Assembly (NCBI GenBank): GCA_900767715.1
Contig: CAAGAD010000005.1
Coordinates: 151,632 to 215,631, forward strand
Direction: 5' to 3'
DNA from: Clostridia bacterium
GTDB lineage: Bacteria; Bacillota; Clostridia; Christensenellales; UBA1242
Length of the DNA stretch: 64,000 bases
Shown here: positions 16,061 through 59,035 of the stretch, piece by piece
How positions within the stretch are numbered: position 1 is the first letter of the stretch
How the letters are laid out: each line of letters starts with the position of its first letter
The notes under the pieces: generated by a model
What the model saw: only the letters and a program-made list of their open reading frames with translations
The model's database searches: none
Told to the model about the DNA's origin: nothing
Program-made: the position numbers and the translations under genes

Positions 16061-16359
16061 TGATTTGTAAAAATTTGTTTACAATTAATTTTATTTAAAT
16101 ACTATCTATACATTAAAAAAATGTATTTAAAAATTATTTAGTATTATAAAAAAATAAATAAATTTAATTAGGAATAAATAATTATTTAATTTATAAATTT
16201 TTTACAATTAAATAAAATTAATATTAATTTAATTAAAAATATATAAAATTATTGGTAAAATATATTGTTTTTTAAATTAATTTAAATATTTTAACCAAAT
16301 AATCATTAATTTTCAAATTAATAAATAAACGAATATTTAAACAATTAATTTATTAATTA
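16061..16359. other. Extremely AT-rich intergenic tract (about 7% G+C by hand count)
   Basis: About 300 bp of almost pure A/T lie between the DUF3343 gene stop and the nth promoter. It contains TACATtaaaaaaATGTA and TCATTttcAATGA palindromes. ACAATTAA(T/A) recurs at about 16081, 16204 and 16341. Confidence 0.9.
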
Positions 16360-16623
16360 TTAAAATATTCTACGAATAACATCTCGCTGACCATAGTTGG
16401 AATCAATCACATACATACCGTTAAAGCCGGACATATTTCTTCTGGACAAAATTGATTGCGCAGTGTAAACGTCATTCGGGTTTATCATCACAGCCAGACT
16501 GCAACTAGACACAATGCTTTTTGGTGCGTTTACCATTGATGAATACACACCATAACTTTGCAAAATACTTCTAAAATTCATTAGTTCATTTCTCGACCTA
16601 AAAAGCATATAGGCGTTTCTCAT
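16360..16623 (-). CDS. DUF3343-like small protein (putative S/Se carrier-like)
   Basis: 87 aa. The pattern MLFRSRNELMNFRSILQSYGV...VNAPKSIVSSCSLAV resembles DUF3343 (F.s...A...e..L...gi....P.P..i...CG.ai). It is divergent from a cysteine desulfurase. Confidence 0.55.
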   Translation of the reverse strand: MRNAYMLFRSRNELMNFRSILQSYGVYSSMVNAPKSIVSSCSLAVMINPNDVYTAQSILSRRNMSGFNGMYVIDSNYGQRDVIRRIF

Positions 16624-39451: not shown

Positions 39452-40255
39452 ATGTCAAGTTTATTAAATTTTTTCGAAAATAACTGGTACTGGATTGTTG
39501 GCGCAGTAGTATTGATGATAATTGTTTTGCTCATTATGCTCGTTGTGCTTGACAAGAAGGACATTAGATTGCAAGACGCAATTGAAGAGAAGCGCGTTCA
39601 AAAAGAAGCAGAGAAGAACGTAGCCAAAGCAGAAGCAATTGAGAACACAACAGTTGCTGAAGAAACTGTAGAAACAGTTGAAGAAAAGCCTGTTGCAAAG
39701 AAAGCCCCTGCAAAGAAATCTGCAAAGAAATCTGCAAAGAAAACAACTGCTAAAAAAGGCGCAAAGAAAGCCCCTACAAAGAAAGCAGAACCAGCAGTAG
39801 TAGCACCAGTTGCAACTGTTGAAACAGCACCAAAACTAGAAGAAAAGAAACCTGCTACAAAGAAGGCTACCGCTAAGACTAGCGCTAAAAAGCCAGTAGC
39901 GAAGAAGGTTGCTCCAAAGGCTGAAGTTAAAGAAGAACCTGTACTTGATGCAGAAGTTGTAAAGACTATTGCTGAACCAGAAGTTAAGAAAGTTGAAGAT
40001 AAAAAACCTGCAACTAAAAAAGCCCCTGCAAAAGCAAATGCTAAAAAGACAACCGCAAAGAAAACAACCGCAAAGAAAACCCCTGCTAAAAAAGCAGAAC
40101 CAAAAACTGCTCCAAAAGCAGAAGTGAAAGCCCCAGTTGCGAAGACCGCTCCAAAAGCAGAAGCAAAGAAGCCTGCAACTAAGACAACTGCTAAAAAACC
40201 AGTAGCAAAGAAAACTACTGCTAAAAAACCTGCAACTAAAAAGTCTGCAAAATAA
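39452..40255 (+). CDS. Membrane-anchored lysine/alanine/proline-rich repeat protein (histone H1/AlgP-like tail)
   Basis: One N-terminal TM segment (WYWIVGAVVLMIIVLLIMLVVL), an acidic linker, then about 190 aa of AKK/TAKK/PAKK repeats (e.g. KKTTAKKTTAKKTPAKKAEPK). Confidence 0.65.
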   Translation: MSSLLNFFENNWYWIVGAVVLMIIVLLIMLVVLDKKDIRLQDAIEEKRVQKEAEKNVAKAEAIENTTVAEETVETVEEKPVAKKAPAKKSAKKSAKKTTAKKGAKKAPTKKAEPAVVAPVATVETAPKLEEKKPATKKATAKTSAKKPVAKKVAPKAEVKEEPVLDAEVVKTIAEPEVKKVEDKKPATKKAPAKANAKKTTAKKTTAKKTPAKKAEPKTAPKAEVKAPVAKTAPKAEAKKPATKTTAKKPVAKKTTAKKPATKKSAK

Positions 40256-57449: not shown

Positions 57450-57852
57450 AATTATGGGCATAGATTATGGTGATGCGCGTATTGGCGTCGCATTCAGCGA
57501 TTGGCTACACGTCATCGCCAATGCTTATGAAGTTTATCACAGACAAGATATGGACACCGACATGACACACTTCGCCGACCTAATCAAAGAGAATTCGGTC
57601 AACCATATCGTCATAGGTTTGCCACTCAATATGCGTGGCGAAGAACAAGAAATCGCCTCCAAGACGCGAGCATTCGCCACCGCACTCAAAGAAAAATTTA
57701 ATCTTCCCATAACTTTCATCGACGAACGCTTGACATCTAGCGAAGCGGAAGATATGCTTAAATCAGCAGGTTATGGCTGGCAAGAGCGCAAGCAAATGTT
57801 GGACGCCGTCAGTGCTCAAATCATTTTGCAAACTTATTTAGATAGGTTATAA
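57442..57852 (+). CDS. ruvX: Putative pre-16S rRNA nuclease / Holliday junction resolvase-like RuvX (YqgF)
   Basis: IMGIDYGDARIGVAFSD and DERLTS motifs. 136 aa. Confidence 0.9.
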   Translation: MNKIMGIDYGDARIGVAFSDWLHVIANAYEVYHRQDMDTDMTHFADLIKENSVNHIVIGLPLNMRGEEQEIASKTRAFATALKEKFNLPITFIDERLTSSEAEDMLKSAGYGWQERKQMLDAVSAQIILQTYLDRL

Positions 57853-57861
57853 GGAGTGTAT

Positions 57862-58158
57862 ATGCAAAAAGTTTCACCGATTGAACAAATTCTCGACCCG
57901 AACAACAGCGACAATGTGGTTCTTTACAACGAGAATGGCAAGCCAATGGAGTTTAGCCAGATTTGTGTGCTGACCTTGAAAGACAAGCCTTATTGCATCC
58001 TCAAACCTACCGCCAAACTCAAAAATATCGCCGATGACCAAGCCATCGCGTTCGCCATCGACTTTGACAATGACATCATACAAGCCGTCGCCGACGCGCA
58101 TATGGTGGACGAAATCTTTAAGGCATATGAAAAACTCTATTATGAATCACAAGACTAA
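57862..58158 (+). CDS. DUF1292 (YrzB-like) protein
   Basis: The VVLYNENGKPMEFSQICVL...KPYCILKP pattern follows ruvX, as in the B. subtilis yrrK-yrzB arrangement. ATG 57862 has SD AAGGAG. The track start at 57856 is GTG. Confidence 0.75.
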   Translation: MQKVSPIEQILDPNNSDNVVLYNENGKPMEFSQICVLTLKDKPYCILKPTAKLKNIADDQAIAFAIDFDNDIIQAVADAHMVDEIFKAYEKLYYESQD

Positions 58159-58179
58159 AAGGGCACACACCCTTTTTTT
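58158..58179 (+). terminator. Terminator after the DUF1292 gene
   Basis: AAAGGG-cacaca-CCCTTT hairpin plus a T-run. Confidence 0.6.
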
Positions 58180-58288
58180 ATGCAATGAGTAATACATACT
58201 ACCTATACGACTGGGCACGCATTACGACCAAGTTGTATAACAAAGCATTATAAGTGTAATCTGGCAAAACAACAATGAAAAATACACT

Positions 58289-58330
58289 AAACTCAATTTA
58301 GTTCACAATCGCAACTAAATTGAGTTTTTT
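58289..58330 (+). terminator. Strong orphan hairpin terminator
   Basis: Perfect 15-bp stem AAACTCAATTTAGTT-cacaatcgc-AACTAAATTGAGTTT followed by TTTTTT. No annotated gene ends here. Confidence 0.65.
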
Positions 58331-58344
58331 CTTTAAAAATTCGT

Positions 58345-58372
58345 TTGACATTCAACAATTTATTCGTATACT
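58345..58372 (+). promoter_or_regulatory. Candidate marR-operon promoter overlapping the first palindromic operator
   Basis: TTGACA(58345-58350), 16 nt, TATACT(58367-58372). The -10 sits at the centre of ATTCGTA-TACT-TACGAAT. Confidence 0.45.
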
Positions 58373-58477
58373 TACGAATGAATTGTTGTCAAACTTGATT
58401 TATTCGTATACTTACGAATGAATTGTTGTCAAACTTGATTTATTCGTATACTTACGAATGAATTGTTGTCAAACTTG
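58358..58477. repeat. Three tandem copies of a 40-bp unit, each containing a perfect 7-4-7 palindrome
   Basis: The unit TATTCGTATACTTACGAATGAATTGTTGTCAAACTTGATT occurs at 58361, 58401 and 58441. The third copy diverges after 37 nt. The palindrome is ATTCGTA-tact-TACGAAT. The minus strand of each unit reads TTGACA-16 nt-TATACG. Confidence 0.95.
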
Positions 58478-58570
58478 CAATTTATTCATTGGATTATAAG
58501 TATATTGCTTTCAGTTTTGCAATTTAGACTTTCAAACACAAATTGACAACATCTACACAAAGGATAAACT

Positions 58571-59035
58571 ATGGAAAAACATGATATTGGGGCTGAGATA
58601 AGGCTTTTGAACCTTATATTGTCGCGCCGTGTACATAACACGCCGATACTGTCATATTTGGAAACAATTACGGGCACGAACGCATATATTATCGGGTATT
58701 TGGTAGATAATAAAGACAAAGAAATTTACCAAAAAGATATTGAAAACGAGTTCGGCATAACGCGTTCAACCGCTTCAAAAGTGCTGAAACTTATGGAGCA
58801 AAAAGGCTTAATTGAAAGGCAGTCAGTTGACCTTGACCGCCGACTCAAAAAGGTGGTTGCCACGCCGAAGAGCGAAGAAATGAGCAAGCAAATTGAGAAG
58901 GAAATTCGCGACCTAAATCTTACACTCACGCGCGGAATCAGTAAAAAAGATTTAGACACGTTTAAAAGTGTAGCAGAGCAAATGCGTGCCAACTTAAAGG
59001 AGAGTTTATGTTCAAAAAATTGTCCAAAAGCGTAA
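58571..59035 (+). CDS. MarR family transcriptional regulator
   Basis: Winged-helix region QKDIENEFGITRSTASKVLKLMEQKGLIERQSVDLDRRLKKVVATPK. First gene of the operon with two ABC exporter genes. Confidence 0.85.
   Translation: MEKHDIGAEIRLLNLILSRRVHNTPILSYLETITGTNAYIIGYLVDNKDKEIYQKDIENEFGITRSTASKVLKLMEQKGLIERQSVDLDRRLKKVVATPKSEEMSKQIEKEIRDLNLTLTRGISKKDLDTFKSVAEQMRANLKESLCSKNCPKA

Follow-up and report, generated by a model that had tools for sequence, protein, structure and literature searches.

In the 64-kb stretch of DNA analysed in this study (hereafter the window), three identical copies of a 40-bp unit are arranged head to tail upstream of a marR gene and two genes encoding ABC half-transporters, and in short-read assemblies the number of units differs among conspecific strains. 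The interpretation that we favour, with confidence slightly above even, is that this array is a variable-number tandem repeat derived from the core of the marR-ABC promoter, that the operator of the MarR protein lies outside the repeat, and that the additional units fall within the leader of the operon. The features of the locus are listed in Table 1.

Tandem Repeats Finder placed the array at positions 58358-58487 (period of 40 bp, 3.2 copies, 97% matches) and assigned to it a score of 242, the highest in the window. A repeat search returned three 100% identical 40-nt copies (units 1-3) and, downstream of these, a further copy of 63% identity at 58480-58519. The latter matches the unit at 25 of 40 positions, a result bettered by none of 2000 shuffled sequences, and is a genuine decayed fourth unit (D1). 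The tandem triplication reported in the first-pass annotation of this DNA is therefore real, and the register given there (58361, 58401 and 58441) describes the same array shifted by 3 nt. With three exact copies and a decayed one following each other at a fixed period, the locus has the structure of a variable-number tandem repeat. Tandem Repeats Finder also pointed to two other regions of the window: a very AT-rich segment at 16125-16363 (periods of 10-64 bp), and a run of 12-39-bp periods at 39694-40250 that is built on CTGCAAAGAAA and is probably a coding repeat rich in lysine and alanine.

Table 1. Features of the marR-ABC locus and its upstream region (window coordinates).
Feature	Position	Strand	Basis and remarks
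Relic, last ~20 codons of an 897-aa gene	58194..58253	+	Identity to L005
Hairpin and T-run, relic intrinsic terminator	58289..58333	+	Perfect 15-nt arms; RNA fold -15.6 kcal/mol, z -8.5
Predicted MarR operator TTGTTGAATGTCAAACGA (GTT-N8-AAC)	58341..58358	-	Matrix match; overlaps the -35, outside the repeat core
53-bp imperfect palindrome	58343..58395	.	Operator/-35 arm, inner palindrome, and mirror operator copy lacking 4 nt (AATTGTTG----TCAAAC)
-35 hexamer TTGACA	58345..58350	+	Promoter scan; unchanged among all strains and in the two sister taxa
Unit 1	58358..58397	+	Spacer end, -10, predicted transcription start, first ~20 nt of the leader
-10 hexamer TATACT	58367..58372	+	16-nt spacer; inside unit 1 and the first 18-bp palindrome
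Unit 2	58398..58437	+	Identical to unit 1; in the predicted 5′ leader; 11-bp hairpin, -10-like TATACT
Unit 3	58438..58477	+	Identical to units 1 and 2
Decayed fourth unit (D1)	58480..58519	+	25/40 identical; extra CA between unit 3 and D1
marR ribosome-binding site AAAGGA	58559..58564	+	Read from the sequence
MarR-family regulator, 154 aa	58571..59035	+	Pfam MarR_2, 2.9e-14
ABC half-transporter 1, 580 aa	59008..60750	+	Pfam ABC_membrane and ABC_tran; overlaps marR by 28 nt
ABC half-transporter 2, 635 aa	60743..62650	+	Conspecific gene calls; start uncertain, open frame from 60692

Each of the exact units carries the perfect inverted repeat ATTCGTA-TACT-TACGAAT, as had been claimed. This 18-bp palindrome is present exactly three times in the 64 kb, at 58362, 58402 and 58442; no further copy with up to two mismatches was found in the window (chance expectation of 0.31), and a search for the 16-mer core of the palindrome with three mismatches added one poor match. 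The larger imperfect palindrome proposed around copy 1 proved to be real as well: its 16-nt arms (58353-58368 and 58373-58388) are 94% complementary, and the segment 58341-58397 folds as single-stranded DNA at -16.5 kcal/mol (z = -7.3). It had been suggested that the array arose by amplification of the right 40 bp of an ancestral palindrome of approx. 52 bp. The one-unit allele of contig L105 has exactly this structure, i.e. a single long palindrome directly followed by a decayed unit, which is the state that was proposed as ancestral.

A search of public contigs from metagenomes and viruses located the exact 18-mer at this locus (on one conspecific metagenome contig), and as single matches in 10 unrelated contigs and one viral contig. 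The unit does not recur at several loci or in several genomes, as would be the case for a dispersed, mobile or REP-like element, and the array is a single-locus element, not a member of a dispersed family. We know of no operator among the Zur/Fur 7-1-7 boxes, the LexA Cheo box, the ARG box, the PurBox and the sites of CtsR, FadR and BlaI/CopY that fits the palindrome in both spacing and orientation; the nearest operator word is presumably the Zur box TCGTAAT-N-ATTACGA, with a spacing that is off by a single base. A search of Rfam with the region 57800-58700 gave only sub-threshold matches to miRNA hairpins, reflecting the palindromes, and no known RNA family.

The presence of a marR-ABC exporter operon downstream of the array was corroborated by the Pfam matches of a MarR-family gene and two ABC half-transporter genes. 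In translation, half-transporter 1 has a non-canonical Walker A motif (GATGSSKT) and a Walker B motif (LILDDS) that lacks the catalytic Glu, and half-transporter 2 contains the canonical sequence MILDEATS. To judge from these sequences, the two proteins look like the subunits of a heterodimer with one degenerate ATP site. Searches of NCBIfam and PDB sequences yielded only generic MarR/SlyA and MsbA-like ABC matches. The genes located upstream of the array encode ValRS, RuvX and a DUF1292 protein.

The pair TTGACA-16-TATACT (58345/58367), previously proposed as the operon promoter, scored 11/12 in the promoter scan. In a sister taxon whose MarR shares 84% identity with that of the window (L011-L013), the upstream region reads CGTTTGACATTCAACA-TATTTTTTGC-CATAAT and is followed by a short leader; the hexamer CATAAT, preceded by a 17-nt spacer, occupies the position that matches the -10 of the window. 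The block GTTTGACATTCAACA, which includes the -35 hexamer, is thus common to the window and two sister taxa, and this conservation of the -35 region supports the assignment of the promoter. Transcription would then start at approx. 58378-58380, which would place units 2 and beyond within the 5′ leader. The only other plus-strand candidate that the scan detected upstream of marR, TTGACA(58543)-16-TAAACT, was rejected, since it lies directly against the start codon and its -10 is not conserved, being GAAACT or CAAACT in other strains.

No promoter was called by the scan for unit 2 or any later unit, and a usable -35 is absent there: the nearest -35-like hexamers upstream of the TATACT of these units are TTGTCA, with a spacer of 15 nt, and TTGTTG, with one of 18 nt. 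On the minus strand, each unit had been credited with a divergent promoter. We found no support for the three promoters, as their putative -10, TATACG, lacks the final T, none passes the scan, and there is no gene that they could serve. A minus-strand candidate, TTGCAA-18-TATAAT (58522 to 58493), was also noted; its -10 is TATAAC in many strains and no minus-strand gene is located upstream.

The "orphan" hairpin at which the divergent promoters were thought to be aimed has another origin. The segment 58194-58345 is 99.3% identical to positions 2664-2815 of contig L005, on which a gene for an 897-aa protein ends at position 2723. This gene is located between the DUF1292 gene and marR on contigs L001, L005, L094, L105, L111, L115, L118 and L132. 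The hairpin is the terminator of the plus-strand 897-aa gene, which the window strain has lost, with the terminator and the last ~20 codons remaining. The gene (897-901 aa) has no Pfam match, encodes a hydrophobic N-terminal segment and shows presence/absence polymorphism (L005, 30-2723; L111, 1915-3297). In a sister metagenome-assembled genome (MAG) with 94% MarR identity, only half of the terminator hairpin is retained.

In order to predict the operator of the MarR protein, a matrix was trained on 21 distant marR-ABC-ABC loci (roughly 36-49% identity), none of which comes from the clade of the window. These relatives contain one or two 18-nt sites with the consensus ATGTTGTATGTCAAACAG, a GTT-N8-AAC palindrome, which start at the 3′ end of the -10; where two sites are present, they are 15 bp apart and inversely oriented. 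The best match to the matrix in the whole window (~128,000 positions) is TTGTTGAATGTCAAACGA at 58341-58358 (score of 16.3), and L011, L014 and L105 share this site. The predicted operator covers the -35 of the promoter (58345-58350), the position expected if MarR represses its own synthesis through a 16-20-bp pseudo-palindromic site over its -35/-10 region. No position within the 40-bp units scores above zero with this matrix. Each unit does contain a mirror copy of the operator word, AATTGTTG----TCAAAC, which lacks 4 nt, so that its half-sites are separated by 4 nt instead of 8 nt. The marR-ABC-ABC layout is shared by about 45 related loci, across which the recognition helix TRSTASKV..LMEQKGLIER (ITRSTASKVLKLMEQKGLIER) is almost invariant, with no difference between the window, L014 and L011.

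The predicted operator is therefore located outside the units, and amplification would not multiply the expected MarR site. The claim that ATTCGTA-N4-TACGAAT is itself the MarR operator is supported neither by the matrix results nor by the 84% sister taxon, which has the identical recognition helix and neither the repeat nor this palindrome. Based on these comparisons, the operator of this MarR is most likely not ATTCGTA-N4-TACGAAT, and the array does not appear to be an array of cognate MarR sites.

Several features of the relatives may be mentioned in addition. In L014, a perfect palindrome, CTGTTGTT-AGCTATAA-AACAACAG (TGTT-N8-AACA; matrix score of 9), is present at ~2963-2986, i.e. 38-21 nt upstream of the marR ATG. 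It lies just upstream of the ribosome-binding site and may constitute a second MarR site; this palindrome is absent from the window species. Relative L054 contains three subfamily operator sites with a 15-bp period, located ~75 to 30 nt before the marR ATG. Tandem repeats are not a general feature of the promoters of the relatives. Unrelated tandem repeats occur upstream of the promoters in L046 (21 bp x 3) and L057 (62 bp x 2.9).

Copy-number variation was analysed on metagenome contigs. The exact MarR protein of the window is encoded on many human-gut metagenome contigs, and the promoter region was read on every contig that spans the array and encodes a MarR identical to that of the window or belonging to its 90%-identity cluster. 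The base at unit position 37 (C or T) was listed unit by unit, yielding a unit-SNP pattern for each array. In these short-read assemblies, where arrays of 120-160 bp approach the read length, the conspecific contigs contain (i) one unit (two contigs, L105 and L119; pattern T), (ii) two units (11 contigs; patterns CT, TT and CC), (iii) three units (six contigs and the window; patterns TTT, CCT and CCC) or (iv) four units (one contig, L008; pattern CTTT). Four independent assemblies yielded the three-unit CCC form. The first-pass annotation had anticipated such variation, and the number of units indeed differs among conspecific strains at this locus. The unit-SNP patterns are inexplicable by a single event, and point to repeated gain and loss of units combined with homogenisation.

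A single count can err by one unit: contigs L009 (three units) and L010 (two units) differ by 0 SNPs in 3465 nt downstream and may represent one sample assembled twice. Scaffold L117 has an N-gap inside the array and about ten contigs end within it. With its 80-160 bp, the repeat is a systematic point of breakage or collapse in short-read metagenome assembly. Many Logan contigs start about 126 nt upstream of marR. One contig, L134 (Logan SRR29133984, 1-95), lacks the extra CA, and its decayed unit continues the array exactly at the 40-nt period, which fits slippage or unequal exchange; the last ~45 nt of its leader are replaced by an unrelated sequence with a stronger ribosome-binding site (AAGGAG), which indicates that the leader is plastic beyond the number of units.

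The scan of a genome collection gave the 94% sister MAG as the best match, and the window species itself was not returned. This sister species (L014) carries two units, behind which partial, decayed copies are found. Its sequence agrees fully (100% identity) with that of the window in the segment 58341-58395 and in the core of unit 2, whereas marR has only 64.5% identity at third codon positions and no alignment is possible for the leader beyond the units. The identity of the promoter/palindrome block despite this divergence implies that the block is under selection. The conserved segment includes the right arm of the palindrome (58373-58395), which is perfectly preserved between the species and for which a model based on the MarR operator and the leader does not account. 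Its conservation keeps two other explanations under consideration: the right arm may serve MarR as a non-canonical site, or it may be bound by another protein such as a second regulator.

The units also influence the predicted structure of the leader RNA. The unit hairpin folds at -10 kcal/mol (z -4.0) in the sense orientation and at -5.3 kcal/mol in the antisense orientation; it is twice as stable on the sense RNA due to a G·U pair. The three-unit leader has a folding z of -3.3, which originates from the unit hairpins, compared with +0.3 for the one-unit leader. Both complete unit hairpins are retained in the centroid fold of the three-unit leader. Leader folding gave no convincing sequestration of the ribosome-binding site.

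These data can be combined into the following model, which is the one that we prefer. The operon would be transcribed from TTGACA(58345)-16-TATACT(58367), and MarR would repress its own synthesis via a single predicted site of the subfamily type at 58341-58358, over the -35 and just upstream of the repeated segment. Because the -35 and the operator precede only unit 1, this unit would be the sole working promoter. Every extra unit would make the leader 40 nt longer and contribute a hairpin of 11 bp, which is more stable in the sense RNA, as well as a -10-like TATACT in the non-template strand. Units would be gained or lost by replication slippage or by unequal recombination between neighbouring copies, both favoured by the palindrome and by the common ATTTATTC at the unit starts, and old copies would decay at the 3′ end of the array. 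In Escherichia coli, -10-like elements in the leader cause sigma-dependent pausing. Any effect of copy number would probably be limited to a gradual shift of leader-dependent expression, brought about by the hairpins or by such pausing. Since the repeat does not contain the expected repressor site, it would be a real, but fairly ordinary, variable repeat.

Other explanations assign a more specific role to the units. The array may act as a contingency "rheostat" in a prevalent, uncultured gut species, a reading that we regard as doubtful. Gain and loss of units would then determine how strongly, or how inducibly, the heterodimeric exporter is expressed strain by strain, possibly even within one host, with the palindrome serving as a target of a second regulator or of non-canonical MarR binding, or as a leader module for hairpin formation or sigma pausing. 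A second regulator, encoded elsewhere, could also bind the palindrome in its own right, the array determining how many copies of it occupy the promoter and the beginning of the transcribed region as roadblocks or decoys. Such a protein would explain the cross-species conservation of the palindrome and of its right arm, which goes beyond the MarR operator model, as well as the location of the palindrome astride the -10, and L014 has extra TACGAAC half-sites downstream of its units. However, these half-sites can equally be decayed units, no candidate protein was found, and the confinement of the exact 18-mer to this locus among the public contigs, apart from chance single matches, gives no sign of a regulon, which makes this proposal unlikely. 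In the model of the first-pass annotation, ATTCGTA-N4-TACGAAT is the MarR operator and each unit adds a site for one dimer, the copy number determining how strong or how cooperative autorepression is. As a perfect 7-4-7 inverted repeat with the -10 in its centre, the palindrome has the classic geometry of a repressor site; it is 100% conserved between two species whose neutral sites have diverged by ~35%, and for MarR proteins, binding to two or more sites of a promoter is common. Nevertheless, the conserved, RcrR-like operator of the subfamily is a different word, present once and at the -35, which shares no half-site with the palindrome, and the 84% sister taxon dispenses with the latter; furthermore, a spacing of 40 bp corresponds to 3.8 helical turns, and neighbouring sites would thus be out of phase. 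For these reasons, the model is in our opinion distinctly unlikely.

The two remaining explanations concern the copies beyond the first. Each of them could supply an additional, operator-free promoter (TTGTCA or TTGTTG with TATACT), so that MarR-independent expression of the exporter would rise with the number of units. TATACT is indeed present in every unit, with the 5/6 match TTGTCA upstream of it, but the spacer of this pair is only 15 nt, TTGTTG at 18 nt matches the consensus at 3/6 positions, there is no TG extension, and none of the combinations passes the promoter scan. A unit of 41 bp would give a good promoter, so the period of 40 bp does not look as if it had been selected for this purpose, and we judge the proposal to be very unlikely. 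Alternatively, the further copies might be functionless by-products of slippage, homogenised with a constrained first copy, and part of the variation might be due to assembly errors. The decay of old copies (D1 in the window and the partial units in L014), the existence of a one-unit allele and the assemblies of the same or a near-identical strain that differ by one unit are in agreement with this; against it, two or more intact units are retained in most strains and in the sister species, and collapse of repeats alone cannot produce differing unit-SNP patterns. This explanation seems highly improbable to us.

The main value of this analysis lies in correction: the array exists and is polymorphic, the comparatively predicted repressor site lies beside it, and the "orphan" hairpin is left over from the deletion of a gene. 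In addition, short-read metagenome assemblies are broken or blurred by arrays of such size, as this locus illustrates. If the number of units changes expression, the array would provide a common gut commensal with a simple, heritable and reversible adjustment of the exporter that leaves the repressor unmutated, with possible effects on tolerance to drugs, bile or metabolites, and it would be a ready strain marker.

One of the closest parallels is the rcrRPQ operon of Streptococcus mutans, which encodes the MarR-family regulator RcrR and the ABC exporters RcrP and RcrQ, and is autorepressed. The RcrR sites identified by DNase footprinting, ATTATAATAGTTTTCA / TGAGAACTATTATAAT, form a GTT-N8-AAC palindrome beside the -10 (PMC8407328). 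The locus analysed here resembles rcrRPQ in its layout, with marR immediately preceding two co-directional ABC half-transporter genes, and in the operator design of the relatives and of the predicted site 58341-58358; it is by this layout and design that we liken the two. They differ in that the predicted operator of the window lies on the -35, whereas the RcrR sites are next to the -10. In the portion of that report available to us, the rcrR promoter is described with no mention of a tandem repeat (PMC8407328). A search of the literature on tandem repeats in MarR operators or efflux promoters revealed no matching case.

In a wider sense, the array is one of the promoter-proximal variable tandem repeats, a known class. 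Well-known examples are (i) the TR34/TR46 repeats (2-4 copies) of the Aspergillus fumigatus cyp51A promoter, where amplified promoter elements raise expression, (ii) the 7-bp repeats upstream of Haemophilus influenzae hmw1A and hmw2A, whose variable copy number alters expression, and (iii) the TAAA repeats upstream of Neisseria meningitidis nadA, a gene controlled by the MarR-family repressor NadR, in which copy number likewise alters expression. Common to all of them and to the present array is a short promoter-proximal unit, whose number varies among strains through slippage or unequal recombination (a presumed mechanism in the present case), and nadA also shares with it the involvement of a repressor of the MarR type. 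In those systems the effect on expression has been measured, whereas for the array described here it is hypothetical. Its unit also differs from theirs in being 40 bp long, with a -10 and a hairpin, in being situated mostly within the predicted transcribed leader, and in that it neither multiplies the predicted regulator site nor alters the -35/-10 spacing. Intergenic minisatellites of 40-100 bp are represented by the MIRU-VNTR loci of Mycobacterium tuberculosis. The array is similar to these in the size of the unit (tens of bp), its intergenic location, the strain-polymorphic copy number and the decayed end copies, and is distinct from them in being confined to a single locus and in having a unit derived from the local promoter palindrome.
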